Positions 9,122-48,644 of a stretch of 64,000 nt of DNA are shown here, one piece after another; within the stretch, counting starts at the first letter, position 1, and each line of letters opens with the position of its first letter. The notes under the pieces were generated by a model that saw nothing but the letters and a program-made list of their open reading frames with translations, was not told the origin of the DNA and did not search any database. Position numbers and translations under genes: made by a program. The DNA comes from Vulcanimicrobiota bacterium. GTDB taxonomy: Bacteria > Vulcanimicrobiota > Vulcanimicrobiia > Eremiobacterales > Eremiobacteraceae. The stretch covers positions 352,001 through 416,000 of the forward strand of contig CAWETU010000001.1 in NCBI GenBank assembly GCA_963812135.1, given 5' to 3'.

Positions 9122-9708
9122 AGGCCGTCTTCGTCGATCGCGACGGCACGCTCAACGTCAATACCGGCTACGTCGGCGATCCCGCAGACGTCAAGCTCGT
9201 GCCGGGCGCTGCGGAAGGCGTGCGGCTGCTCGCCGATGCGGGCTACGCGATCGTCGTCGTCTCGAACCAATCCGGCATCGCACGAGGTTATTTCACGCCT
9301 GCTGCCGCCGAAGCGGTCGATGCCCGCATCCGCGAGCTGCTCGCCGCGTCGGGCGCGACGATCACTGCGTCGTATCGCTGTCCGCACTGGCCCGAGGAAA
9401 ATCGGCCGAGCGATGTTGCCGCGTGCGATTGCCGCAAGCCGAAGCCCGGCATGCTGCTACAGGCAGCGGCCGACCTCGGAATCGATCTCTCGCGCTCCTG
9501 GATGATCGGCGACCGCCTGCTCGACATGCAAGCCGGCCGCGCGGCGGGGTGCCGCTGCGTGCTGGTCGCCGGCGTGCCGGCGCACGAGCCGCCCGAGGAT
9601 TTTTCCAGCGCGCCGCCGCTCTATCGCGCACGCGATCTCGCCGACGCAGCTCGTTTCATACTGACATCCGCGGACGCGCCTGCCGCGCGCGCAGCCGGAT
9701 CGCGATGA
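9118..9708 (+). CDS. gmhB: D,D-heptose 1,7-bisphosphate phosphatase (HAD)
   Basis: FVDRDGTLN, SNQSGIARG, CPH...CDCRKPKPGM, MIGDR. Confidence 0.93.
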   Translation: MKAVFVDRDGTLNVNTGYVGDPADVKLVPGAAEGVRLLADAGYAIVVVSNQSGIARGYFTPAAAEAVDARIRELLAASGATITASYRCPHWPEENRPSDVAACDCRKPKPGMLLQAAADLGIDLSRSWMIGDRLLDMQAGRAAGCRCVLVAGVPAHEPPEDFSSAPPLYRARDLADAARFILTSADAPAARAAGSR

Positions 9709-10775
9709 GCGCGATCGAGCCGGCCTGGGTCGCCGACCTGCTCAAGGCGATGCGCGGAGCGCGCATCGCGGTCGCCGGCGACATCATGCTCGACGAATGG
9801 TTGTGGGGCAGCGTGCGGCGCATCTCGCCGGAAGCGCCGGTGCCGGTGGTCGAGGTCAGTTCACAATCGTTCACGCTCGGCGGCGCGGGCAACGTCGCCA
9901 ACAATCTCGCGGCATTAGGCGCGAAGGTGCGTCTGGTCGGCGTCGTCGGCGACGATGCCGCCGGCAGCCGGACGCTCGAGCTGTGCAAGCAGCTCGGGAT
10001 CGACACCTCGGGTGTGTTCGTCGCGCCCGGCCGGCCCACGACGCAGAAGACGCGCATCGTCGCGCACAACCAACAAGTGGTGCGCGCAGACCGCGAGGTG
10101 ACCGCGGCGCTCGACGCGCGCTCGCGGCGCGCGCTGCTCGATCGTCTGCGCTCGCTCGATGGAGCGATCGACGGGGCGGTCGTGTCGGACTACAGCAAGG
10201 GCATGGTCAGCGCGCCGATCGTCCAGACGCTGCTCGGGCACCGTCATCGCGTCGTCGTCACGGGCGATCCCAAACCCGCCAACCTTGCTGCGTTTTCCGG
10301 CGTCGACTGCATCGCGCCGAATCTTGCCGAAACCGCAGACGCGGCGGGCATGCCGGTCGACACCGACGCGGCACTGGCGCGGGCGGCGTCGCGTTTGCTC
10401 AAGTCGACGAACACCAAGTATGTCCTCGTCACGCGCGGCGAGCACGGCATGACGCTTTTCGGCGCGCACGGCGCGCCGTTCACGGTGCCTGCGGTCGCGC
10501 GCCAAGTCTATGACGTCAGCGGTGCGGGCGACACGGTGATATCCGCCCTGACGCTGTCATTGGCGGCGGGTGCGCCGATCCGGCACGCGGTCGCCTTCGC
10601 GTCGCTGGCGGCCGGCGTCGTCGTCGAGAAACTCGGCACCGCGACCGCGACGCCGAAAGAGATCTTAGAGTTCGCGCGGCGCGAAGGCGTCGCACACCCG
10701 ATGCGCTTGGCGAGCGCGAAACGCGCATCCCGCGGGAAGTCCCGCAGCGGCAAGGGCCGTGCGCGCCGCCGATAA
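9705..10775 (+). CDS. rfaE1: Heptose-7-phosphate kinase (RfaE domain I)
   Basis: GDIMLDE, RISPEAPVPV, GGAGNVANN, SDYSKG, DVSGAGDTV. Confidence 0.93.
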   Translation: MSAIEPAWVADLLKAMRGARIAVAGDIMLDEWLWGSVRRISPEAPVPVVEVSSQSFTLGGAGNVANNLAALGAKVRLVGVVGDDAAGSRTLELCKQLGIDTSGVFVAPGRPTTQKTRIVAHNQQVVRADREVTAALDARSRRALLDRLRSLDGAIDGAVVSDYSKGMVSAPIVQTLLGHRHRVVVTGDPKPANLAAFSGVDCIAPNLAETADAAGMPVDTDAALARAASRLLKSTNTKYVLVTRGEHGMTLFGAHGAPFTVPAVARQVYDVSGAGDTVISALTLSLAAGAPIRHAVAFASLAAGVVVEKLGTATATPKEILEFARREGVAHPMRLASAKRASRGKSRSGKGRARRR

Positions 10776-11250
10776 AGTACTGCCGCGCGACGACATCGCC
10801 CGGCTGCTCCCGGCGCTGCGCGCCGAGCGCGGTACGCTCGTCTTCACCAATGGAGTCTTCGATCTGCTGCACGTCGGACACGTGCGTTACCTCGAATTCG
10901 CCCGCGCCCTGGGAGGCATCCTGATCGTCGGCATCAATTCGGATGCGTCCGTCCGCGCCCTCGACAAAGCTCCCGGCCGCCCCCTCGTCAGCGCCGCTGA
11001 ACGCGCCGAGATCGTCGCCGCGCTTGCCTGCGTCGACTACGTATGCATCTTCGACGAGCCGCGCCCGGATGCGACGCTGCGCGTGCTGCGCCCGGACATC
11101 CACGTCAAAGGCGCGGGTTACACGATCGCACAGCTTCCCGAAGCGGCGACCGTCGCGGAGATCGGCGGCAAGATCGTGCTGGCGCCGCAGGTCGAAGGCC
11201 GATCGACGAGCGATCTGCTCAAGCGCATCCGCGAAAGCGATTCGAAGTGA
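10759..11250 (+). CDS. rfaE2: Heptose-1-phosphate adenylyltransferase (RfaE domain II)
   Basis: FTNGVFDLLHVGHVRYL, GINSDASV, HVKG, GRSTS. Confidence 0.93.
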   Translation: MRAADKVLPRDDIARLLPALRAERGTLVFTNGVFDLLHVGHVRYLEFARALGGILIVGINSDASVRALDKAPGRPLVSAAERAEIVAALACVDYVCIFDEPRPDATLRVLRPDIHVKGAGYTIAQLPEAATVAEIGGKIVLAPQVEGRSTSDLLKRIRESDSK

Positions 11251-12488
11251 CGCCGCGGCTGGTCGTCACCGTCAATGGTCCCGGCGAACTGATGGGTTGG
11301 GCGCGCCCCTTCGTGCGCGCGGTCTACGAACTGGCCGCGGACACGCACGTCACGATCGTGTTCGTGCCGTGCCCCTATGCGACCGGGCGCGAGCCCCAGA
11401 CGGCGCGCGACCTTTTCCCGCGGGCGACCGTGGTGCCGCCCAAACAGTATGCGCGTTTCCTCATGGGTCGCGCCGTCGAGGGGATGGAGAAAGGCCCCGG
11501 CGCCCTGCAGTACCTCGGCGGCGATCTGTACCATGCGAAGACGATCGCGAAGCGCATGGGACTGACGTCCATGACCTACAAGTTCTCGCGCCGCAACTTC
11601 GCGCACAGCTTCGTGCGTTTTTTCGCGCTCGACGAAGCGAACGCCGCAGAGTTGCGTGCGACCGGCGCGCCGCCGGATCGCGTGCGCATCGTCGGCAACC
11701 TGGTGGCCGACTCGGTGCTCGAATCGGTGGCCTCACCGGCACCGGCGCCGAGCCGCGCGACGACGATCTGCATCTTCCCCGGCAGCCGGCCGCCGGAGTT
11801 GCGCGCGCTGTTGCCATTCTTTCTCGATGCGGTGATGCGCGTGCTGCGCGCGCGGCCCGAGCTCAGCGGCAGCGTGTCAGTCGCTCCCTTCAATAGCGAC
11901 GATGAGATCGGCGCGAGTATGCAGGCGCCGGATAGTGCGTTCGGCGGCGTGCGCGGCGAGCTCGTCGACGGCGGCAAGGCGATCGTCGTGGACGGTATCC
12001 GCTTTGCGGTTGACCGTTCGGGCAGGTACGAGGCCCTGTCGCAAGCGGCGCTCGTGATCGCGACACCCGGCACCAAATGCATTGAAGCGGCTGTGCTCGG
12101 CCGGCCGCTGCTCGTCGTGCTGCCGCTCAACCGGACCGACGAAGCCGTCGTGCCAGGAATGGCCGGGTATTTGCATCGCGTACCCGTGGTCGGCCGGCCG
12201 CTCAAACGCTGGCTGTCGCATAAGATCGAGCGCCGCTTCAAATATGTCGCGCAACCCAACATCGACGCCGACAAACTGCTGGTGCCGGAATTGCGAGGCG
12301 TGCTGAGCTCGCAGGATATCGCGGCGCGCGCTCTCTCGATGCTCGGGGACCCGGCCGGACTGGACGCGATGGGCGCCGAGCTCGCGCAACTGTATGCGCA
12401 CGACGCCGGAGCGGCGGTGCGCATGGCGCGCGAGGCGCTTTCGGTGGCGGTCGAAGCGGCGCAGCCGGCGACAGGAGCGGCATCGTAA
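11247..12488 (+). CDS. Lipid-A-disaccharide synthase (LpxB)-like glycosyltransferase
   Basis: NGPGELMGW, YLGGD, VGNLVAD, IFPGSRPPE, PGTKCIEAA, QPNI...VPEL resemble divergent LpxB-related GT-B proteins. Confidence 0.65.
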   Translation: MTPRLVVTVNGPGELMGWARPFVRAVYELAADTHVTIVFVPCPYATGREPQTARDLFPRATVVPPKQYARFLMGRAVEGMEKGPGALQYLGGDLYHAKTIAKRMGLTSMTYKFSRRNFAHSFVRFFALDEANAAELRATGAPPDRVRIVGNLVADSVLESVASPAPAPSRATTICIFPGSRPPELRALLPFFLDAVMRVLRARPELSGSVSVAPFNSDDEIGASMQAPDSAFGGVRGELVDGGKAIVVDGIRFAVDRSGRYEALSQAALVIATPGTKCIEAAVLGRPLLVVLPLNRTDEAVVPGMAGYLHRVPVVGRPLKRWLSHKIERRFKYVAQPNIDADKLLVPELRGVLSSQDIAARALSMLGDPAGLDAMGAELAQLYAHDAGAAVRMAREALSVAVEAAQPATGAAS

Positions 12489-12490
12489 CC

Positions 12491-13372
12491 ATGCCCGAGG
12501 CGACCGTCGTGATCGCCACGCGCGATCGCGCCGACCTGCTGCGCGATTGCCTCGCCCGGCTCGCGGCGCAAACGGCGCACGGGCGGTTCGATGTCATCGT
12601 GGCGGACAACGGTTCGAGCGATGATACGGAGCGCGTCGTCGCGCAGGCGGCGCCGCTCGCCAGACGCGTCTTCGTCGCGCGACCCAATCGCGGCAGCGCG
12701 CGCAACGCCGGCATCGCTGCGGCGACCGGCCGCATCGTCATCTTCTGTGACGACGACACGCTGCCGCCGGGCGGCTTCGTCGCCGCGCACCTCGCCGCGC
12801 ACGGCGCGGCAACAGATCGCGTGGTGGCAGGGCCGATCGTCAACGTGCCCGACGCGGAGCATCTGACGGCGCCGACCGCCGCGCACTATTCGCGCGCGTT
12901 TTTTTGCACGTGCAACGCGAGCGCGCCGAAAGCCGCGCTCGATGCCGTCGGCGATTTCGATGAGGCATTCGAGCTGTACGGGTGGGAAGACACGGATCTC
13001 GGCGTGCGCTTGAAGAGCGCGGGCCTCAAGCGCGTGTTCGCCTGGGATGCGTACATCTATCACGTCAAGCCGCCATCCGTGATGACGCTGGAGCGCCGGC
13101 TCGCCCTCGCTCGCGAGAAGGGCGCGATGGCCGCGCGCTTCGTGCGCAAGTCACCGACCTGGCCGGTACGTCTGGCGACCGGCGCATATGCGGCGAATTT
13201 CGCGCGCGCATCGATTGCCGGCGTGGCGCCGCTGCGGCGCCTCTATGAACGGCTCGCGCAGCCGCGCGTGCCGGGTGAGCTCTCGGGCGTGCGCGCGCTC
13301 GCCGCGGATGCGCTGGCAGACGCGACATATGTCGATGCGCTGCGCGCGGGGCTGCGGCGCGCAGATGGCTGA
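12491..13372 (+). CDS. Glycosyltransferase family 2
   Basis: VVIATRDR, DNGSSD, ARNAG, FCDDD, YGWEDTDLG. Confidence 0.9.
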   Translation: MPEATVVIATRDRADLLRDCLARLAAQTAHGRFDVIVADNGSSDDTERVVAQAAPLARRVFVARPNRGSARNAGIAAATGRIVIFCDDDTLPPGGFVAAHLAAHGAATDRVVAGPIVNVPDAEHLTAPTAAHYSRAFFCTCNASAPKAALDAVGDFDEAFELYGWEDTDLGVRLKSAGLKRVFAWDAYIYHVKPPSVMTLERRLALAREKGAMAARFVRKSPTWPVRLATGAYAANFARASIAGVAPLRRLYERLAQPRVPGELSGVRALAADALADATYVDALRAGLRRADG

Positions 13373-14384
13373 CGCCCCCCGATTTCTCCTCGTACGTCTT
13401 GACGGGCTCGGCGATGCGCTCGCGTGCATCCCCGCGCTTGCCGGTCTGCGCGCAGCGCATCCAGGTGCGGCGTTCGGCGTCGTCTGCTCGAGCGCGAACG
13501 CCGACGTGTTCTCGGATCTGATGGAGCGCGTGCATGTCTTGCCAGATGTGTCTGCGCCACGCGAAGCGCTCGACGCGGAATTGAAGCGGGCCGGATACAC
13601 GCACGCGCTTGTAGCGACCGAGGAAGTCGCGGGATACGCGCTTGCGTCGGCGTCCGGCGCGCGCCGCCGCGCCGGCTTTTGGCATCGCTTTGAAAAGCCG
13701 TTCAAGTCGCTCTGGCAATTCGCGCAGCTCACCGACCGCGTCTACCGGCCGGCGGCGTGGACCGCGCGCCCGGAGCACGAGGCGGAAACGCTCTATCGTC
13801 TCGCGCTGCCGTTCGGCGCACACGCGCCGCCGCCGCGCGACGCACGAACACTGCGCGAATGGGTGGCGCTCGACCCCGATCCATCGCAGCAGCTGACGCG
13901 CGATACGCTCGGCGTGCAAGTGGCCGGCAAGCTTGCGACCGACGGGTGGGGCCCAAGCGCGCTCGCGCAACTCTGCGAGAGCGCCCTCCGATCGTCCGAG
14001 CTGCGTGATTTGGCGCTGTTGGCGGCGCCATCCGACCAGGGCCTCGCGCACTCCGTGCTGGAACACTTTGGCGGCGACGCGCGTTCGCGCGCCCGCGTGC
14101 TACCTCCCGGACGCGTGCCCCAATGGTTCGCAGCGATCGATTCGCTCGCGGCGCTCCTCACGCCGGATACCGGCGCGGCACATGCAGCCGGCATGCTCGG
14201 AGTCCCGGTGATCGATCTCTTCGCCCAGACACGTTTCGACCAGCTCTCGCGCCAATGGCGTCCGTGGGCGGCGCCGGCGCGCTGCCTCGTCAAGCCGATC
14301 GCAGGCCCCGGCATCGCGCAGTCATTCGGCGACGAGCTGGGGACCGAGATCAAACGGTTGCGCACGCAGGACGCACGCGCGTGA
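13365..14384 (+). CDS. Glycosyltransferase family 9 (heptosyltransferase-like)
   Basis: LVRLDGLGDAL...P; TPDTGAAHAAGMLGVPVIDLF; WRPW. Confidence 0.85.
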   Translation: MADAPRFLLVRLDGLGDALACIPALAGLRAAHPGAAFGVVCSSANADVFSDLMERVHVLPDVSAPREALDAELKRAGYTHALVATEEVAGYALASASGARRRAGFWHRFEKPFKSLWQFAQLTDRVYRPAAWTARPEHEAETLYRLALPFGAHAPPPRDARTLREWVALDPDPSQQLTRDTLGVQVAGKLATDGWGPSALAQLCESALRSSELRDLALLAAPSDQGLAHSVLEHFGGDARSRARVLPPGRVPQWFAAIDSLAALLTPDTGAAHAAGMLGVPVIDLFAQTRFDQLSRQWRPWAAPARCLVKPIAGPGIAQSFGDELGTEIKRLRTQDARA

Positions 14385-15427
14385 GCCAAACGGATCGCGC
14401 ACGCGTGCTCGCGGTGTGCACCGGCGGCGGCAGCGGCGATCTGCTGGCCGCGACGCCGGCGATGCAGGCATTGGCGCGCCATTTCGGCCGGAAGCTCGTG
14501 GTGCTCGCGTCGCCGCTCGCCGCGCCGCTGCTCGACGGCCACCCAGCCGTCGAAACGACGCTGGTCGATGACGGCCGGGAGCCGGTCGACGCGATCGCCG
14601 CGCGGCTGCGCGAGTTCGGCTTCACGCACGCGGTCGTCTTCTGGTCGACGGCGCGCGTCGCAGCGATCGTCGCGCGCGCGGGCATCCCAGTGCGCGTGGG
14701 CCAGTCGCGGCGCCTGTATTCGTGGCGGTATACGCTTCGCGTGCCGGTGCGCACCGAGCGCGGCGACCAGACCAGTCACTGGACCGACGTGCAGATGGAT
14801 TACGCGCGCGCCCTGGGCGCACAGCCGATCGATTCGGATTATCGCATCGTCGTGCCGATCGATGCGGACGACCGGGCGCAAGCAAGCGAGGTGCTCCGCC
14901 GCGCCGCGCCGGATGGGCGCTTTCTCGTCTTGCACGCGGCGCGCGGCATGCGCTTGGACACGGTGCGCTGGCCGGTGGAGACGTTCGCGGCGATCGGCGA
15001 TGCGCTCGCCGACGCGTTCGGTGTGCCAGTATTGCTCACCGGCGCCGCAGATGAGGCGGCGACCATCCAACGGATCGGCGACGCGATGCACCGGCCGCAC
15101 GCAGTCATCGCAGGAAAGACCAGTCTACGCAGTCTCGCCGCACTGCTCGAACGAGCCGAGGTGGTCGTCGCGCTTGATTCGGGACCGATGCACATCGCCG
15201 CGGCGGTCGGCGCGCCGACGGTCGGTATCTTCGCGCTGCGCACGGATCTGCCGAAACGCTGGCGGCCGCTCGGCGATCGCGTGGTGATTGTCGAGCCCTC
15301 GTACGCGTGTCCGCGGTGGTGCCGCAAGGAGACGTGCAAGACGTTCGACTGCTGTCGCGCGCTCGACCCGGCCGCGATCGTCAGCGCTGCGCGCGACGCG
15401 ACGCGCAAGACCGCGAGCGTCGCATGA
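14381..15427 (+). CDS. Glycosyltransferase family 9 (heptosyltransferase-like)
   Basis: GDLLAATP, RWP, AGKTSL, DSGPMHIAAAVG, WRP, C-terminal Cys cluster. Confidence 0.9.
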   Translation: MSQTDRARVLAVCTGGGSGDLLAATPAMQALARHFGRKLVVLASPLAAPLLDGHPAVETTLVDDGREPVDAIAARLREFGFTHAVVFWSTARVAAIVARAGIPVRVGQSRRLYSWRYTLRVPVRTERGDQTSHWTDVQMDYARALGAQPIDSDYRIVVPIDADDRAQASEVLRRAAPDGRFLVLHAARGMRLDTVRWPVETFAAIGDALADAFGVPVLLTGAADEAATIQRIGDAMHRPHAVIAGKTSLRSLAALLERAEVVVALDSGPMHIAAAVGAPTVGIFALRTDLPKRWRPLGDRVVIVEPSYACPRWCRKETCKTFDCCRALDPAAIVSAARDATRKTASVA

Positions 15428-16344
15428 GCGCTCCGATCATCACCGTTCAGTTGTGCACGTACAACCGTCGCGCGCTGCTCGGCCGCGTGATGCAGGCCCT
15501 CTTCGCACAGGACCTCGATTCATCCCAATACGAGATCGTGCTTGTCGACGACGGTTCGACCGACGGCACATACGAAGACGTGATCGCCAAACTCGCGCCG
15601 ACGTGCGCGCTGACCGTCGTGCGCCAGCGCAATGCCGGCCTTGCCGCCGGTCGCAACGCCGGCATCGCGAGAGCGCGCGGCGAATTGATCATGTTCATGG
15701 ACGACGACGTGCTCGCCACGCCTGGGTTGCTGGCGGCGCACGTGCGTGCTCACCAGGCGAACTCGCGCGCGATCGTCAGGGGCGGCGTGATCAACGTCGT
15801 GTCGTTCGACGAGTTGCCGCGTGCAGCGTATTCCTGGCGCAACTACTCGGGTGCGTATTTCTGGACCACCAACGTTTCGGTGCCCCTCGCGCTGCTGCGA
15901 GAAGCCGGGGGCTTTGACGAACGCTTCCGGGAGTACGGCTGGGAGGACCTGGACGTCGGTCTGCGTCTGCGGCAGATGCATGTCCCATCGCTGCTCGCCA
16001 AAGACGCGCTCGTCTACCATTATAAGCCACCCGCGCCGCCCAGCGCGTTTTCGGCGCAGGCGCGCCAGGCGCGCGCCCAGGCACGCACCGCGGTGCAGTT
16101 CATCGACAAGCACCCGCACTGGCGCGTCGCGCTGGCGACCGGCCAAGTCGCGCCGCTGATGTGGTGGAGCGGAGTCGCGCGGGCGCTCGGGTGGCCGCGA
16201 CTGCTCGAGACGATCGCGAAGCCAGACATGTCGAGCGGTGCGCTGCCGATGGGCCTGCGCCGATGGGCCGCAGCGCGCTTCGCTCGCGCCGAATACTTCG
16301 ACGAACTGCAGCTCGCCCGCGCGCCGCGGGCGCGAAAAGCGTAA
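15424..16344 (+). CDS. Glycosyltransferase family 2
   Basis: CTYNR, VDDGSTDGT, GRNAG, FMDDD, YGWEDLDVG. Confidence 0.9.
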   Translation: MSAPIITVQLCTYNRRALLGRVMQALFAQDLDSSQYEIVLVDDGSTDGTYEDVIAKLAPTCALTVVRQRNAGLAAGRNAGIARARGELIMFMDDDVLATPGLLAAHVRAHQANSRAIVRGGVINVVSFDELPRAAYSWRNYSGAYFWTTNVSVPLALLREAGGFDERFREYGWEDLDVGLRLRQMHVPSLLAKDALVYHYKPPAPPSAFSAQARQARAQARTAVQFIDKHPHWRVALATGQVAPLMWWSGVARALGWPRLLETIAKPDMSSGALPMGLRRWAAARFARAEYFDELQLARAPRARKA

Positions 16345-16353
16345 GCGCGCAGC

Positions 16354-17379
16354 GTGCCTGCCTATCGCCGCATCCTGCTCATCCGCACCGACCGGCTCGG
16401 CGACCTCGTGCTCTCGACGCCGGCGATCGCGTCGTTTCGCCGGTCGTGGCCGGACGCGCGCATCGAGGCGCTCGTCTCCGACTACAACGAGCCGGTGATG
16501 CGTTTCAATCGCGACGTCGACGCGCTTCACGTGTTGCCGCGCACGGCCTCACGCTCGCAAGCCCGAGCGCTCGCGCGCACCCTCGGGGAAGGCGTGGACC
16601 TCGCCGTCGCGCTCGCGCCGCGCACCGCGGATTATCGGCTTGCGCTGTGGTCGCGCGCGCCGCGGCGCATCGGCTACGTCTATCGAAGGCGCTACCTCTC
16701 GCGACTGGCGGCCCGCGTGATGCTGACGGATCACGGCATCTCTGAAGCGGATCCCGACCTCGCCGATCGCTATCCCGACCGTCCGGTTGCACACGAGGTG
16801 CATCAAGTGCTCGCCCTCGTGCGTCTCGCGGGCGGCGAAACGCTCACTGATTCGCTCGTCTTCGACGTCGGCGAAGAGGCGACAGCGTTCGCGCGCGATG
16901 CAGTGCCGTCCGGCGCGATCGGCGTGAATCTCGCGCCGCGCTGGTTCGCCCCTGACTTCGGCCTGCGCGCGACTGCGACGCTCATCGAGGGTCTCGCCGC
17001 GCAGCAGAAGGACGTGCTGGTCACGTATGGCGGCGACGTGCGAGAAGCGGCGATGCAGCTGCGCGGCTCCGTCAACGCGTCCAACGTCACCTGGATCGGT
17101 GAAGCGCCGGTGCTCGATTGGGCGGCAGCGCTCGGCCGGTGCGGCGCGGTCATCACCGTTGATTGCGGCGCGGTGCACGTCGCCGCCGCGCAAGGCATTC
17201 CCGTCGTCGGCGTCTACGAACGGCAGTATTATCGGTTGAGCTCCCAGGAGTGGAGCCCATGGCACGTGCCGTCGGTCGTGCTGTGCAAACCACCCGAGGG
17301 AGCGAGCGCGCTCCCGCTCATCGACGACGTGCTCGCGGGCGTGCGGGCGCTGCTGCGCCAGCCCGCGCCCGCCGCATGA
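16354..17379 (+). CDS. Glycosyltransferase family 9 (heptosyltransferase-like)
   Basis: LIRTDRLGDLVLSTP; DCGAVHVAAAQG; WSPW. Confidence 0.87.
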   Translation: MPAYRRILLIRTDRLGDLVLSTPAIASFRRSWPDARIEALVSDYNEPVMRFNRDVDALHVLPRTASRSQARALARTLGEGVDLAVALAPRTADYRLALWSRAPRRIGYVYRRRYLSRLAARVMLTDHGISEADPDLADRYPDRPVAHEVHQVLALVRLAGGETLTDSLVFDVGEEATAFARDAVPSGAIGVNLAPRWFAPDFGLRATATLIEGLAAQQKDVLVTYGGDVREAAMQLRGSVNASNVTWIGEAPVLDWAAALGRCGAVITVDCGAVHVAAAQGIPVVGVYERQYYRLSSQEWSPWHVPSVVLCKPPEGASALPLIDDVLAGVRALLRQPAPAA

Positions 17380-17389
17380 TCCGAAGAGC

Positions 17390-18325
17390 ATGAAGCTATC
17401 GGTCGTGATCCCGACCTACAACCGCATCGATACGCTGCGGGTCGTCGTGCCGTCTCTCCTGGAGCAGACGCTGCCCGCCGGCGAGTACGAGCTCGTCATC
17501 GCCGACTCGCGCAGCACCGACGGCACGCGCGAGTATCTGGCGGGACTGGGGGCCGGCGGCCGAGTCCGCCATCTGCCCGGCGACTATACCGGCCGCGCGT
17601 CGGCGCGCAATGCCGGCATCGCCGCTGCGGTCGCGCCGCTCGTCCTGTTCACGGATGCGGACATCATCGCGTCGCCGGACCTGCTCGAGCGCCACGTGGC
17701 CGGACACGAAGCCGCGGAACGGCGTATCGCGATCGTGGGCTGCGAGCTCCAAGTCAAGTCGCTCGACGACTACCGCGTGCAGCGCGACCAGCCCGAAACC
17801 CGCAAGCCATTGCACCCGGCGGAGCGCCGGCGGCTCTCCTGGCTCTACTTCTTGACCGGCAACGCGTCCGCGCGGCGCGACGATTTGTCGGCGGTCGGCG
17901 GATTCGATGAGGATTTCACCGGTTACGGTCACGAAGACCTCGAGCTCGGGTATCGGTTGGAGAAAGCCGGCGTCGAGCTGCGATACGACGCCCGGGCGAT
18001 CAACTATCACTGGCACCCGGTCGGCTACGAAGAACAGAAGGGCAAGATGGAGCTGGCCGGCGTGTCGACGGTGCGTTTCTATCGCAAGCATCGCGACGTA
18101 GCGGTGATGGCGAACCTCGGGATGACGCCGGTCTCGCTCGCGCTCCACTCGTTGCTGCAAGCCGCCGGACCCGTGCGGCGTGCCATCGAGCGCGCGGGCG
18201 AAAGCCAAGAGTCGCCGCGCAAGAACACGTGGCCGTTCATCGCGCGACAGATCGCCTATCAATACCACTACTTGAACGGGGTGAAGCGCGCATTGCGCGA
18301 GCCCGACGGAGCGACACGCGGTTGA
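17390..18325 (+). CDS. Glycosyltransferase family 2
   Basis: SVVIPTYNR, STDGT, ARNAG, FTDAD, YGHEDLELG. Confidence 0.9.
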   Translation: MKLSVVIPTYNRIDTLRVVVPSLLEQTLPAGEYELVIADSRSTDGTREYLAGLGAGGRVRHLPGDYTGRASARNAGIAAAVAPLVLFTDADIIASPDLLERHVAGHEAAERRIAIVGCELQVKSLDDYRVQRDQPETRKPLHPAERRRLSWLYFLTGNASARRDDLSAVGGFDEDFTGYGHEDLELGYRLEKAGVELRYDARAINYHWHPVGYEEQKGKMELAGVSTVRFYRKHRDVAVMANLGMTPVSLALHSLLQAAGPVRRAIERAGESQESPRKNTWPFIARQIAYQYHYLNGVKRALREPDGATRG

Positions 18326-32445: not shown

Positions 32446-32922
32446 ATGAAAGAGATGTTGCCGCAGGTGCCCGAGCCGGCCGGTCACGATCGCCCGTCCT
32501 GGGATGAGTACTTCATGGCGATCACGCGTGCCGTCGCGACGCGCGCGACGTGTTCGCGCCGCGCAGTCGGCGCGGTGATCGTCAAGGACAAGCGCATCCT
32601 CGCAACCGGATACAACGGCGCGCCGATCGGCATGCGGCACTGCGACCACAGCGCCGGCGGCGACATGCGCGATGGCCATTGCGCGCGCTCCACGCACGCC
32701 GAGCAGAACGCGCTGGTGCAAGCGGCGCGCCACGGGACGTCCATCGCCGGCGGCACGATGTACTGCACCGATCATCCGTGCTTGACATGCGCCAAGCTGA
32801 TGATCAACGCCGGCCTGACCCGCATCGTGTACGAGGATTCATATCCGGACGACCTTGCCGCCGCGATGCTGCTGGAGGCGCGCGTGCAGCTCGATCGGCT
32901 CACGGACCGGCGCACGTCGTGA
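32446..32922 (+). CDS. dCMP/cytidine deaminase family (ComEB-like)
   Basis: RPSWDEYF, RATC, TGYNG, HAEQNA, PCLTC. Confidence 0.9.
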   Translation: MKEMLPQVPEPAGHDRPSWDEYFMAITRAVATRATCSRRAVGAVIVKDKRILATGYNGAPIGMRHCDHSAGGDMRDGHCARSTHAEQNALVQAARHGTSIAGGTMYCTDHPCLTCAKLMINAGLTRIVYEDSYPDDLAAAMLLEARVQLDRLTDRRTS

Positions 32923-33974
32923 TCGTGCTGGCTGCCGCCGCATTGCTGGCGGGGCCGATCCGCTTCAACGTCAGCATCTACGCGCTATGCATCGCGACGT
33001 TCGTGATCGCATTCGCGGCCTGCGCGCTCGTGACGCCGCTCGTGATCCGGGCCGCGATCCGCCTGGGTCATTTCGACGAACCGGACGGCGACCGTCGCAT
33101 CCACAGCGAGCCGACGCCGCGTTTAGGCGGCATCGCCATCTATCTCGGGTTCACGCTCGCGCTGTTCGTGACGCTCAACGTGGCCTTGAGCAACAACACG
33201 GTCATCAGCAAGTACCTGGACACGCCGGATCTCGCCAAGCTCATCGGGCTGCTCTTCGGCGGCACGCTCATGATGGGCGTCGGGCTGTGGGATGACGTGA
33301 TGAACATGCGCGCCCGCAATAAATTCATCGCGCAGTTCGCCGTCGCGCTGATCGCCGTGCTCTTCTATGGTTTCACGATCTATCATCTGCGCCTACCGCA
33401 CTTCGGGCTCGTCGAGCTCGGCTGGTTCGGCATCCCGTTCTCGCTGTTCTGGTACTTAGGAATGGTGAACGCCATCAATTTCCTGGACGGCCTCGACGGA
33501 CTGGTCGCCGGCTACACGACGATCGCGTGCATCGCGCTCACCGTCATCTCGCTGCTCAAAGGGCAGTATCTCGTGGCGATCACGACCTGCGCGCTGGCCG
33601 GCGCCGCAGCGGGGTTCTTGCCGTTCAACTACAGCCCTGCGCGCATCTTTATGGGCGACGGCGGTTCGCTCTTCATCGGGTTCGTGTTGGCGACCATCGG
33701 CGTGATGGGCACGGAAAAGCAAGCCGTCGCTATCTCGTTGGTCGTGCCGCTGCTGATCCTGGCGTTGCCGATCCTCGACACGGCAAAAGTCATCGCGCGA
33801 CGCTTGCACAAGGGCGCGCCTATCTCAGGGGCCGATCGCGAGCACGTGCATCATCAGCTGCTCGATCTCGGGCTGTCGCAACGTCAGGCGGTGCTGCTCA
33901 TCTACGCGGTCTGCGGCATCCTCGGCGTCGTCGCGATCGTGCTGTCCCTTCCCAAAGGGCCGCATATCTTTTGA
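32919..33974 (+). CDS. Undecaprenyl-phosphate GlcNAc-1-phosphate transferase (WecA/TagO, MraY family)
   Basis: RRIH..PTPRLGG, GLWDD, NAINFLDGLDGL, FMGDGGS, DREHVHH. Confidence 0.92.
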   Translation: MIVLAAAALLAGPIRFNVSIYALCIATFVIAFAACALVTPLVIRAAIRLGHFDEPDGDRRIHSEPTPRLGGIAIYLGFTLALFVTLNVALSNNTVISKYLDTPDLAKLIGLLFGGTLMMGVGLWDDVMNMRARNKFIAQFAVALIAVLFYGFTIYHLRLPHFGLVELGWFGIPFSLFWYLGMVNAINFLDGLDGLVAGYTTIACIALTVISLLKGQYLVAITTCALAGAAAGFLPFNYSPARIFMGDGGSLFIGFVLATIGVMGTEKQAVAISLVVPLLILALPILDTAKVIARRLHKGAPISGADREHVHHQLLDLGLSQRQAVLLIYAVCGILGVVAIVLSLPKGPHIF

Positions 33975-35140
33975 TGTGTCCGCTCAAGGTCGCCGTCGTC
34001 TTCGGCACCCGGCCCGACGCGGTCAAGATGGCGCCGGTCGTCCACGCGCTCGCGCTCGACGCGCGCTTCGAATGCGTGCCGATCGCCACCGGGCAGCACC
34101 GCGAGTTGGCGGACGAAGTCCTCGCGCTGTTCGGAATCACGCCCGAGCACGATCTCGAGGTCATGACCGAGGGTCAGTCGCTCACCGAAGTGACCACGCG
34201 TGTCCTCGAACGCCTGTCACCGCTGTTGGAGGACGAGCGTCCCGATGTGGTCCTCGTCCACGGCGATACGTCCACCTCGACCGCCGCCGCTCTCGCTTCC
34301 TATTATAAGAAGATTCCCGTCGGGCACGTCGAGGCCGGGCTGCGCACCGACACCATCTACGAACCGTTTCCCGAGGAGATGAACCGCCGTATGACCGGCG
34401 TCATCGCGACCCATCATTTCGCGCCGACGCCGACCGCCCGTCAGAACCTGCTGCGCGAGGGCAAAGACCCGCGCAGCATCGTGGTCACCGGCAACACCGT
34501 GATCGACGCGTTCTTGTGGGTGCACGAGCGGATCACGCCCGACGACACGCCGGCGATCGCGACGAAACGCATGATCTTCGTCGAAGCGCACCGCCGGGAG
34601 AATCTCGGCGAGCCGTTTGAGGCCGTTTGCCGCGCGTTGCGATCGGTCGTGCGCGCCCATCCCGATGTGTCGCTGCTGTGGCCGGTCCACCCGAATCCCT
34701 CAGTCGTCGAAGTGGTGCGCCGCAATCTTGAAGGCCAAGACCGAGTCCATCTCGTGTCGCCGATGAGCTATCGCAAGCTGGTGGGTGCGATCGGTCGCTG
34801 CACGCTTGTGGCGACCGATTCGGGCGGACTGCAAGAAGAAGCGCCGTGCCTGGGCAAGCCGGTGCTCGTCTTGCGACGCGTCACCGAACGCCCCGAGGGC
34901 GTGGCCGCAGGCACGCTGCGCCTTGTCGGAACCGATGAAGCGACGATCGTCGCGGCGCACAACGAACTGCTCGATGATGATGCCGCGTATCAGCGTATGG
35001 CCCACGCCGCGAATCCGTACGGCGACGGGCAGGCCGCGCGACGCATCGCCGACGCGCTGTGGGCGTTCCATCGCAACGGCGCGCTGCCCGACGAATTCGA
35101 TCCTTCGCTGCCGCCGACGCTGCCGTCCGCGGCGCGATGA
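33974..35140 (+). CDS. wecB: UDP-N-acetylglucosamine 2-epimerase (non-hydrolysing)
   Basis: FGTRP, TGQHRE, HGDT, GHVEAGLRT, PEEMNR, TDSGGLQEEA, NPYGDG. Confidence 0.96.
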   Translation: MCPLKVAVVFGTRPDAVKMAPVVHALALDARFECVPIATGQHRELADEVLALFGITPEHDLEVMTEGQSLTEVTTRVLERLSPLLEDERPDVVLVHGDTSTSTAAALASYYKKIPVGHVEAGLRTDTIYEPFPEEMNRRMTGVIATHHFAPTPTARQNLLREGKDPRSIVVTGNTVIDAFLWVHERITPDDTPAIATKRMIFVEAHRRENLGEPFEAVCRALRSVVRAHPDVSLLWPVHPNPSVVEVVRRNLEGQDRVHLVSPMSYRKLVGAIGRCTLVATDSGGLQEEAPCLGKPVLVLRRVTERPEGVAAGTLRLVGTDEATIVAAHNELLDDDAAYQRMAHAANPYGDGQAARRIADALWAFHRNGALPDEFDPSLPPTLPSAAR

Positions 35141-46170: not shown

Positions 46171-46785
46171 ATGCGGGTAGTACGTACGACGGGCGTTCCA
46201 GACGGCGCAACGCTGAGCGATGCGGCCGCCTGCATCGCCGGCGGCGGCACGCTGATATTCCCGACCGAAACCGTCTATGGGATCGGGTGCGCACCGGACG
46301 ACGGCGACGCGGTCGCCGCCATCTTTCGCGCCAAACGCAGACCCGCCGACAAGCCGCTGGCGATCCACTTCGCATGGCCTGAGCAGGCCGCGCAATTCGC
46401 GCGCGTGCTCACGCCGAGCGCTCGGCGCATCATCGAACGGTTGTGGCCCGGACCTGTGGCGATCGTCGTCGAGCGCGCGCCGGACACCGCGCGCGCGGCC
46501 GCGCTCGGCGGACCGACCATCTCGCTGCGTTGTCCGGACGACGCGGCATGCGCCGCGATCTTGCGCGCGACCGGCCCGCTCGCCGCCACATCGGCCAACA
46601 TCTCCGATCAACCGGCGTATGACGGCGAGCAAGCGGAGCTCGACGCGCTGCCGGACGCGACGCTTGCGATCATCACAGGGCCGACTCGTCTGCGGCAAGA
46701 AAGCACGGTGGTTGATTGCACCGGTGACATGCCGCGCATCCTGCGCCTCGGCGTCGTGGACGAGGCGACGATCGCATCCGCTTGA
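46171..46785 (+). CDS. tsaC: L-threonylcarbamoyladenylate synthase (TsaC/YrdC)
   Basis: FPTETVYG, K.RP..KPL, WPGP, ATSANIS, STVVD. Confidence 0.93.
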   Translation: MRVVRTTGVPDGATLSDAAACIAGGGTLIFPTETVYGIGCAPDDGDAVAAIFRAKRRPADKPLAIHFAWPEQAAQFARVLTPSARRIIERLWPGPVAIVVERAPDTARAAALGGPTISLRCPDDAACAAILRATGPLAATSANISDQPAYDGEQAELDALPDATLAIITGPTRLRQESTVVDCTGDMPRILRLGVVDEATIASA

Positions 46786-46798
46786 GTAGCACTGCGCC

Positions 46799-48644
46799 AT
46801 GAGAACCAGACGGCTCATCGCCGCGAGCCTCGCGCTGGCGGTCGCGTTGGGCGTGATGCCGCGCGCCGCGCGCGCCGATCTGCAGATCGGCCGTTTCTCC
46901 GTGCAGTTCCGCAACTCGAACTACAATCTGAAGACCGGCGATATCGTGCTCACGGGCGGCGTGAGCGGCAAAGGACCGGACGGCGACTTCCGCGCGGACC
47001 GCGCGTTCGGCAACCGCGAACGCCAAGAGATCACCCTTGTCGGCAACGTCGTCGCGCATCGCAAGACCGCGACCGCGCCGGTCGAGTTGCGCAGCGACAC
47101 GGCGACGATCGACGAGCGCAGCCGCACGTATATCGCCACAGGCAACGTCAGCGCCATCGTCGGTCCGCGAACGATGAGCGCCGACTCGATGCGCCTCGAC
47201 GATGCCGCGCACGTGTTCACCCTGAACGGTAACGTGCATATCACCGAGCCGCCCGGACGGTCGCTGACGACCGGCGAGTTGGTCTATCATGACGATACCG
47301 GCGACATACAGGTGCCCGGCCCGTTGAGCGGCACGATGGAGAACGGCGATTTTCGTGCCGACGGCGCTGCGGGCAACGTGAAGACTCGGCAGCGTCACGC
47401 TCACCGGCGGTGTGGTCGTGCATTCCGGCGCCGCGAACGGCCCGAGCAAAGAGCCAATCGCGTTGTACGCGGACGTGCTGCACTACGACGGGCAAGCCAA
47501 GACGATCACCGCGACGGGCGACGTGAAGGTCGAGCAAGGCACGCAGGTCGTCACCGCACCGGTGCTGCGCCTCGACAACGCGACCGGCGACCTCCATCTC
47601 AGCGGCGGCGTGCACGGCGAACAGCCGCCCGATCGCAGCTTCGACACCAAAGAGCTGACGTATAACGTCAATAGCGGCGCGATCACCGTGCCCGGCCCGA
47701 TCAAAGGCCGCGCGCGCGAGGGCGACTTCGCGGCGGACGTCGTGCACGGCAACATGAAACTGCGCGTGTACGACCTGCTCGGCCACGCCATCGTGCGCAC
47801 GTCAGGCAAGGGCGCCAAGACACAGGACCGCACGCCGACCGCGTTGTCCGCCGACCACATCCACATCGACGAACTTGCTAAACGTTACGTCGCCGACGGC
47901 AACGCGACAGTGGCGCAGGCCGACCGAACGGTGAGCGCGCCGCTGCTGACCTTCGACGACAAGATCCACGTCGTCAAGATGACCGGCGGCGTGCACGCCA
48001 CGGAACAGCCGGATCGCAGCGCGGACACGGCCGAGGTCATCTATCACACCGACACGGGCCAGGTCAGCGCCCCATCGCAGATCGCAGGCCGTTCAAGCAC
48101 CGACGCGTTTCGCGCCGATCGCGCGATCGGCAATACGAAGACCGACATCTACGATCTCGAAGGCAACGTCGTGATGCGCCGCCAGACGCCGCGCGATAAA
48201 GACCCGACGGTCTTGACCGCGCGCGACGTGCGGATCAACGGCAAGGCGAAGACGTACACGGCGACTGGTCAGCCCAAAATAGTGCAAGGCACGAGCACGA
48301 CGACCGCACAGATCATCACGTTCAACGACGCCACGAACACCGCGCACATGAGCGGCGGTGTGCACGCCGAACAGCCGGGCGGCCGGACATTCGACACGCC
48401 GGAGCTGACCTACAATACCAAGAGCGACGATTTCAAGATGCTCGGCGGCATCACCGCGATCTTCCCGTTGTCGAAGCCGACTCCGACACCCACGCCATTT
48501 CCGTCGCCGAACAGCAGCCTCTCGCCGCAAGTGCCGTCGCCGTTCTCAAACACTTCGACGCCCGCCCAGTACGCGACGCCGTCGCCGACGCCGCCTCCGA
48601 CCCCGACGCCAAGCCCCACGCCGTCGGCGTCACCGACGCATTAG
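46799..48644 (+). CDS. Secreted protein with four tandem LptA/OstA-like repeats and a Pro/Thr-rich tail (one apparent +1 indel near 47386)
   Basis: Signal peptide ending ARA-D. Removing one base joins GNVKT to GSVTLTGGVVVH, fusing ORFs 46799 and 47412 into about 614 aa. LptA-type motifs (ATGNV, L.GNV, TA..L.Y) recur. Confidence 0.75.
46982..48470 (+). repeat. Four ~121-127-aa protein repeats
   Basis: Units start GDFRADRAFGN (46982), GDFRADGAAGN (47345), GDFAADVVHGN (47721), DAFRADRAIGN (48102). Each ends G(G/N)VH....P..R(S/T)..T.E..Y. Confidence 0.85.

Follow-up and report, generated by a model that had tools for sequence, protein, structure and literature searches.

A gene at positions 46799–48644 of a 64,000-nucleotide stretch of DNA from a soil bacterium of the Vulcanimicrobiota (assembly GCA_963812135.1, contig CAWETU010000001.1, positions 352,001 to 416,000 of the forward strand) encodes a single exported chain of four tandem β-jellyrolls of the LptA type. 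The whole stretch is called the window here, and positions are counted from its first letter. The gene product, with its four jellyrolls and a disordered Pro/Thr tail, is probably the LptA-equivalent of this Eremiobacterota diderm, and would bridge LptC to an LptD-like protein in lipopolysaccharide (LPS) export. A covalent LptA bridge is the most likely reading because LptB, LptF/G, LptC, LptD-like and lipid A genes are present in the same genome, together with no other free LptA-like gene. A preliminary description of this DNA had proposed a covalent tetramer that forms a fixed-length lipid conduit. The single chain of four jellyrolls stands, and a role as a bridge fits the gene inventory; the additional idea of a periplasmic ruler is not supported.

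One gene for four tandem jellyrolls

The locus appears as two overlapping open reading frames (ORFs) on the forward strand, ORF 1 (46799–47665, 288 amino acids) and ORF 2 (47412–48644, 410 amino acids), the latter in frame +1 relative to the former. These are one gene interrupted by a single extra base. Frame A reads sensibly, as a signal peptide followed by β-rich sequence, through ...GDFRADGAAGNVKT at 47386. Beyond this point it turns into Arg-rich nonsense: by comparison with orthologs, the out-of-frame tail (47387–47665) is not part of the protein and merely inflates ORF 1 to its annotated length. Frame B contains a TGA stop at 47379–47381, and its meaningful reading, ...GSVTLTGGVVVHSG..., starts at 47388. 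The switch of frame must therefore lie within 47382–47392. A DNA alignment with five same-genus orthologs revealed exactly one surplus base in this interval, best placed at ~47384–47385. We compared four public soil runs over the gene; the site is spanned by one contig only (X3 record 16, 498 nt, ~95% identical), which has one base fewer at 47385. The related protein P0005, from another assembly, is uninterrupted, is identical to the two halves at 194 of 195 and 409 of 418 residues, and reads through the break as GNVK-L-GSVTL. The corrected protein has the length of P0005, ~613 amino acids, against ~614 in the preliminary description, whose claim of one gene split by one indel is confirmed by the alignment, the soil contig and P0005. 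The GTG with which ORF 2 opens (47412) is not a genuine start.

The extra base most likely arose in sequencing or assembly. That the gene is a true pseudogene in this strain, or two separate genes, we consider highly improbable. The extra base does stand in the assembly as given, and the closest public run, X1 (mostly ≥99% identical), has no contig across 47351–47505, which counts against an error since the indel could be real in the strain. Yet frame B stays open after the break, is 98% identical to intact P0005 over 418 codons and offers no plausible start or signal peptide of its own, and the break lies inside a β-jellyroll. In each of the five complete same-genus orthologs, one frame runs through uninterrupted by stops (a sixth, from genome G004, is truncated by contig ends), and the 20 public database clusters of 581–632 amino acids are likewise single chains; one 497-residue fragment and 34 clusters of 346–410 amino acids complete the set. 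Two genuinely separate ORFs, the objection that the preliminary description had raised against itself, were thus not seen among the orthologs. A second long gene points to assembly indels as well: the TamB-like gene of the same genome (G000; 98.4% complete, six contigs) is split across two frames at G000:C1 ~295,277–295,284 (L059 7277–7284; outside the window), and is a single frame of ~1,740–1,790 residues in relatives. Two of the five long envelope genes compared in this genome are therefore frame-broken, and those for the WaaL-like/LptC protein, the LptD-like protein and the SLH porin are intact. Because the TamB-like gene is also broken and P0005 is intact at 98–99% identity, the frameshift is probably an assembly error. 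Programmed frameshifting was ruled out, as the extra base is present in no relative.

The chain begins with a 26-residue signal peptide (46799–46876), read from the sequence as MRTRR, a hydrophobic core and ARA, followed by DLQIG. The model of an ortholog has a helix at residues 2–18, a low-confidence segment at 19–25 and the first strand from residue 26. Both are as expected of LptA, a secreted, soluble protein with a cleavable signal (ARA|DL) and no anchor. The frame-A segment after the signal peptide (46877–47386), the 5' portion of the gene, encodes jellyroll 1 and the opening stretch of jellyroll 2: a 35-residue N-terminal edge piece, unit 1 (46982–47344; E = 2.3e-51 against a single-unit profile) and the first 14 residues of unit 2. 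Frame B supplies the remainder of unit 2 (47388–47720; profile positions 14–125, E = 3.1e-44), unit 3 (47721–48101; positions 1–125, E = 1.3e-53; alignment A3) and unit 4 (48102–48473; positions 1–124, E = 1.1e-51), which ends in a conserved C-terminal edge (...FDTPELTYNTKSDDFKMLGGITAIFPLS). A Pro/Thr/Ser-rich tail of 56 residues and the stop codon follow (48474–48644). The tail is predicted to be disordered, and 5 of its 65 alignment columns are invariant among 22 sequences.

The four tandem units measure ~121–127 residues and are 31–41% identical to one another, and each matches the single-unit profile with E values of 1e-44 to 1e-53. Run on the two halves of the protein, the Pfam families LptD_N (PF03968; 28.9 and 51.2 bits, cut-off 20.4) and LptC (PF06835; 40.9 and 64.5 bits, cut-off 21) both score above their gathering thresholds. 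The NCBIfam LptC model TIGR04409 (51.7 and 84.7 bits) also exceeds its 38-bit cut-off, which explains why public records label relatives 'LptC'. The single-unit profile spans the whole LptA chain of PDB entry 8onu_A (profile 4–119 on chain residues 13–129 of 133; E = 4.7e-6). One unit therefore corresponds to one jellyroll, in a shifted register.

We built an AlphaFold2 model of the intact ortholog P0002 (79% identical) with 21 relatives. It has a mean predicted local distance difference test score (pLDDT) of 84 and a predicted template modelling (TM) score of 0.69. Residues 26–555 are all-β without linkers, and residues 558–622 are disordered (pLDDT <50). A full-length Foldseek search with the four-jellyroll model returned LptD chains at low TM score, and alignment domain by domain with VIA was required. 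Residues 31–152 of the model superpose on Escherichia coli LptA (YhbN; PDB 2R19/2R1A; 2r1a_C) with a Z score of 17.2 and a root-mean-square deviation (rmsd) of 2.0 Å over 122 of 135 residues, and Pseudomonas aeruginosa LptH (4UU4) gave a Z score of 15.6; the range for the two is 2.0–2.1 Å over 122 residues. Both have the same OstA-type β-jellyroll. The preliminary description had called for such a structure prediction and comparison with LptA, and the predicted fold is indeed the β-jellyroll. The last jellyroll shares the fold of LptC (3MY2 and 6MIT chain C; Z 15–16), with a Z score of 16.2 for residues 420–559, the equivalent of unit 4, against 6mit_C. Residues 32–200 match the N-terminal domain of LptD (4q35_A; Z 13.5). 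Extended MORN arrays superpose on ~200 residues that span two adjacent jellyrolls (Z ~13.5, rmsd ~3.4 Å), which would fit a continuous sheet across the domain borders of the model. The chain has no LptD-type C-terminal outer-membrane barrel: PF04453 has no match in the genome, and the model ends in the disordered tail (56–65 residues). The sequence-based description of an exported chain of four ~125-residue, β-rich LptA/OstA-type repeats without a C-terminal β-barrel is thus supported by Pfam, the unit profile and the model.

In secretion, solubility and its expected role as the periplasmic Lpt segment between LptC and LptD, the protein would resemble E. coli LptA and LptH. Unlike E. coli LptA, it carries four tandem jellyrolls per polypeptide rather than one that self-associates head to tail, and it has an additional Pro/Thr tail. 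It also differs from LptC, which has an N-terminal membrane anchor and is encoded beside lptB: here the signal is of the cleavable type, and an anchored LptC is a separate gene beside lptB in the same genome. AsmA-like bridges such as TamB and YhdP offer an analogy, likewise being single-chain hydrophobic β-troughs long enough for much of the periplasm, but they belong to a different family and use a different energy source.

Unit number and conservation among relatives

We searched 31 related genomes with the unit profile. Four units per chain are found in the genus of the window (g1; five complete genomes and the window) and in g6, where the second unit is degenerate. Two units per chain are found in g2, g5, g7, g9 and g10, one unit in g3 and g8, and one elongated unit in g4. 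The sister family f2 has single-jellyroll proteins or two adjacent single genes. In g4, an internal partial duplication of ~40 residues makes the single jellyroll longer, another way of altering the same module; the protein (L032/G009 and L052/G018) also carries an N-terminal Pro/Thr linker and what may be a lipobox, LLAAC. Three of the genomes are unpublished and supply the two-unit protein of g5 (G010), one of two g2 genomes (G016) and the one-unit protein of g8 (G013). They contribute 2 of the 17 rows of the unit profile (A3; both from G010) and 5 of the 41 rows of the tree described below. Without them, four-unit proteins remain in G001–G006 and G011, two-unit proteins in G007, G012, G014 and G015 and one-unit proteins in G008 and G017, and the main conclusions stand.

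Two clades stand apart in a tree of 41 units. The 'last unit' clade (support 96/89) unites the units of single-unit proteins with the second unit of two-unit proteins and the fourth unit of four-unit proteins; the other is an 'upstream' clade (88/90). The first and last units of four-unit proteins are orthologous to those of two-unit proteins, and the units of g6 pair with units 1, 3 and 4 of g1. From these pairings we conclude that the end units are old and orthologous, and that modules were inserted between them before the g1/g6 split. The 22 four-unit proteins have a mean column identity of 72%, which suggests a four-jellyroll chain conserved under selection. Conservation is highest at the ends: the first domain (D1) scores 0.87 and is invariant at 56 of its 129 columns, and the C-terminal edge scores 0.85, against 0.75 for D2 and 0.74 for D3. 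Docking ends and a middle that serves as spacer and conduit would give such a pattern.

Further afield, the unit profile matched 4,372 proteins at E ≤1e-3 among 1.84 billion representatives. Of the best 147 of these, 42 have at least 600 residues and 38 have 400–599. Twelve of the 13 long proteins scanned carry only LptC, LptD_N or OstA_2 domains; covalent multi-jellyroll Lpt proteins therefore recur. Many of the chains of 850–960 residues start with an LptC-like membrane anchor. Such metagenomic LptC-(LptA)n chains (for example P0078, P0081 and P0076; 855–959 residues) contain no domains but jellyrolls of the LptC, LptD_N and OstA_2 types, with 4–6 unit matches each, and are distant relatives that differ from the window protein in the anchor at their start. 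As far as their sequences indicate, they are possible single-chain Lpt bridges from the inner to the outer membrane. The anchored family of 855–959 residues comprises P0067, P0072–P0078, P0081, P0083 and P0113, with one locus at L055 2986–5565. A contig scan for the chains of 850–960 residues gave four loci; the neighbours at L055 were uninformative, and the only taxon leads were Margulisiibacteriota and Aminicenantota.

A published relative in design is Thermotoga maritima G4FGC1, the 'pABC permease', which the available text of PMC10160955 describes as a single-chain fusion of Lpt jellyroll modules that are separate in E. coli. It joins LptF/G-, LptA- and LptD-like parts in a host without LPS genes. 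In the window's organism, by contrast, multiplication is confined to LptA-type modules, and LptB, LptC, LptF, LptG and the LptD-like protein are separate. Given the metagenomic LptC/LptA chains and the Thermotoga fusion, the four-LptA architecture is not unique. We found no description of a tandem or multi-jellyroll LptA in the literature searched, which included the available part of a Bacteroides preprint (10.64898/2026.10.02.756314).

The Lpt inventory and the proposed bridge

The names of close relatives in public records assign the gene to Candidatus Eremiobacteraeota. In the available text of two reports (PMC9758169; bioRxiv 10.1101/534180), electron microscopy and genomics show members of this phylum to be diderms whose outer membrane contains LPS. 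The preliminary description had suggested an inventory of lptABCDFG, and this inventory leaves the LptA role to the present gene. The genome encodes LptB (TIGR04406, 327.6 bits against a cut-off of 240), two LptF/G proteins (257 and 274 bits) and an anchored LptC in the lipid A operon beside lptB (TIGR04409, 50.1 bits against a cut-off of 38; residues 436–606 of P0058). This one operon contains FabZ, LpxA, LpxB, an LpxB-related protein, the WaaL-like protein with LptC, LptB, LptF/G, DUF3084 and an SLH porin, and is adjoined by LpxC. The second LptF/G adjoins an LptD-like protein of 814 residues (G000:C1:466981–469425; L014 4981–7425, minus strand; outside the window) with a signal peptide, a Pro/Thr linker, a jellyroll and a long β region. 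Searches of the genome with PF03968, PF06835 and the unit profile found only the four-jellyroll gene, LptC and the N-terminus of the LptD-like protein, and no other free LptA-like gene. The four-jellyroll protein is thus the only candidate for the periplasmic bridge segment.

Several features of these envelope proteins deserve description in their own right. The WaaL-like (Wzy_C) membrane protein and the anchored LptC form one continuous frame of 620 residues (G000:C1:278400–280259; L013 7398–9260, minus strand; outside the window), with a lipobox-like motif, LLAGC, at their junction. This frame is continuous in g1 (G002, G003, G005 and G006), in g6 (G011) and in g8, where it rests on the unpublished G013; in other genera the two are separate adjacent ORFs. 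A ligase–LptC fusion may couple the last step of LPS assembly to export. The ~100-residue linker of the LptD-like protein, between its signal peptide and jellyroll, is rich in Pro, Thr and Ser and resembles the Pro/Thr tail of the four-jellyroll LptA. Both low-complexity pieces would sit near the outer-membrane end of the bridge. The SLH protein beside the Lpt operon (G000:C1:272239–274905; L013 1239–3905, minus strand; outside the window) is OmpM-like and has 888 residues, with an SLH domain, a coiled-coil stretch of ~45 residues and a large β region ending ...YFTVKF.

Separate LptA molecules in E. coli adopt a head-to-tail stacked arrangement. After Sec export, the four jellyrolls of the present chain would stack in the same way into one continuous β-sheet trough. 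The highly conserved N-terminal edge would dock on the C-terminal edge of the inner-membrane LptC, and the LptD-like outer-membrane protein would receive the chain's conserved C-terminal edge at its own N-terminal jellyroll. LptB2FG would then push a lipid A-based glycolipid, the probable cargo to judge from the gene content, along the trough. The fusion would set the LptA units per bridge at four, with covalent assembly replacing concentration-dependent oligomerisation, and in sister genera, chains of one or two units would probably oligomerise to the same length.

Several observations weigh against an LptA-equivalent that carries LPS. The NCBIfam LptA equivalog TIGR03002 gives 27.6 and 54.7 bits for the two halves, below its cut-off of 71.7 (the halves were scored separately). 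The bridge reading does not account for the conserved Pro/Thr tail. Sequence matches of the LptD-like candidate are weak (NF002997, E = 3.3e-6; LptD chain 7omm_A, E = 0.002), and its AlphaFold model from an 11-sequence alignment is poor (mean pLDDT 44.8, predicted TM score 0.26). A Foldseek search with this model returned LptD chains through rank 25 (best E 2e-11, TM scores of only 0.10–0.20), which would lend weak backing to the LptD assignment. The gene lies between tsaC and rarA instead of in an lptC-lptA-lptB cluster; lptC, lptB and lptF/G are ~120 kb upstream, and the lipid A and Lpt operons 70–120 kb away. LptE, LpxK and the KdtA N-domain have no match in the genome, and the same families are also unmatched in a Synechococcus control. 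The cargo may therefore differ from classical LPS containing 3-deoxy-D-manno-octulosonic acid (Kdo), and lipid A may be made by a Kdo-less pathway like that of cyanobacteria. The unmatched families, together with the position outside the lpt operon, would also suit a different cargo. The protein might then be a conduit or chaperone for, say, another glycolipid, phospholipid or surface lipoproteins, and might act either together with the Lpt ABC transporter or independently of it. Synechococcus itself makes LPS, so that the lack of matches to LpxK and KdtA counts for little. A non-LPS cargo is in our view unlikely, because the only free LptA-like gene occurs in a genome with LpxA/B/C, LptB, LptC, LptF/G and an LptD-like protein, a pathway that would otherwise be bridgeless. 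The preliminary description had correctly placed the gene away from lptB/C and had suggested another lipid on that basis alone; the place behind tsaC bears neither way on LPS versus another lipid. A precedent for other cargo is the Thermotoga fusion, proposed in the available text of PMC10160955 to move other lipids in its LPS-free host.

A four-jellyroll rod might, in addition, be a length-setting ruler for an unusually wide periplasm in the genus, as the preliminary description proposed. The variation of unit number by genus (four, two or one), the insertion of units between conserved end units and the OmpM-like SLH porin with its coiled-coil stalk beside the Lpt operon would all suit a ruler. 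We nevertheless find this improbable, because other envelope-spanning parts do not change with unit number. TamB-like proteins are encoded by a separate gene in all 31 genomes searched, and their uncut open frames of ~1,733–1,790 residues are alike in four-unit (G002–G006 and G011), two-unit (G007, G010, G012 and G014) and one-unit (G008 and G017) genomes. Frames outside this range are shorter in G000, G001, G013, G016 and G024, at contig ends or frameshifts, and longer in G015 (2,548 residues). Covariation of unit number with TamB-like length was accordingly rejected. The OmpM-like SLH porin does not covary with unit number either: SLH proteins have a patchy distribution, in 20 of 31 genomes, and the large porin also occurs in f2 genera with a single-jellyroll LptA (g11, g12 and g18), whereas several two-unit genera gave no match to it. 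One, two or four units thus occur in sister genera without a matching change in either protein. Moreover, one- and two-unit proteins could oligomerise to equal length.

For the covalent LptA bridge, we therefore favour one bridge length reached as 4 × 1, 2 × 2 or 1 × 4 units. In the available text of PMC5575297, the machine with one LptA measures ~16 nm, compared with the 21-nm periplasm of E. coli. This machine amounts to four stacked jellyroll layers, or ~4 nm per layer by our own division (16 nm/4). A four-unit chain would extend the whole machine to ~28 nm. Our more tentative suggestion is that the family's Lpt bridge is fixed at four LptA jellyrolls, however these are distributed over chains, and that a fully covalent, non-exchanging segment is workable.

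Genomic surroundings and significance

Upstream of the gene lies a Sua5/YrdC (TsaC) family gene (46171–46785, forward strand; PF01300, E = 4.8e-44), which ends 13 bases before the start codon. The TsaC family is also found upstream of the LptA-like gene in g2 (L012) and g6 (L008), making it a conserved neighbour in three genera. Elsewhere in the window, a glycosyltransferase cluster (9423–18325) contains a PfkB-family kinase (9423–10775), three GT2 genes and a GT9 heptosyltransferase-family gene (14123–15427). Further glycan genes encode a GT4 WecA/MraY-like protein (32550–33974) and a UDP-GlcNAc 2-epimerase (33527–35140). These are likely LPS core or O-chain genes, and the GT9, GT2 and kinase genes agree with the preliminary description, which had placed LPS genes in the same window.

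The gene bears on an open question: how many LptA molecules make up an LPS bridge, and whether the bridge is stable or assembled on demand. Automatic family names (LptC, LptA and LptD/OstA) are unreliable for these proteins. A natural covalent tetramer under selection, together with sister genera that have one or two units per chain, provides a ready-made comparative series. As a reagent, an LptA rod of defined length avoids the mixed oligomers that stand in the way of structural studies of the entire bridge. If the bridge is indeed fixed at four, the chain would be a monodisperse LptA rod for solving the structure of a complete Lpt bridge, and the first natural read-out of LptA stoichiometry. 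The long LptC-anchored chains of metagenomes would then represent the same solution carried further, and the four-jellyroll protein would argue for a stable rather than a transient bridge in these organisms.

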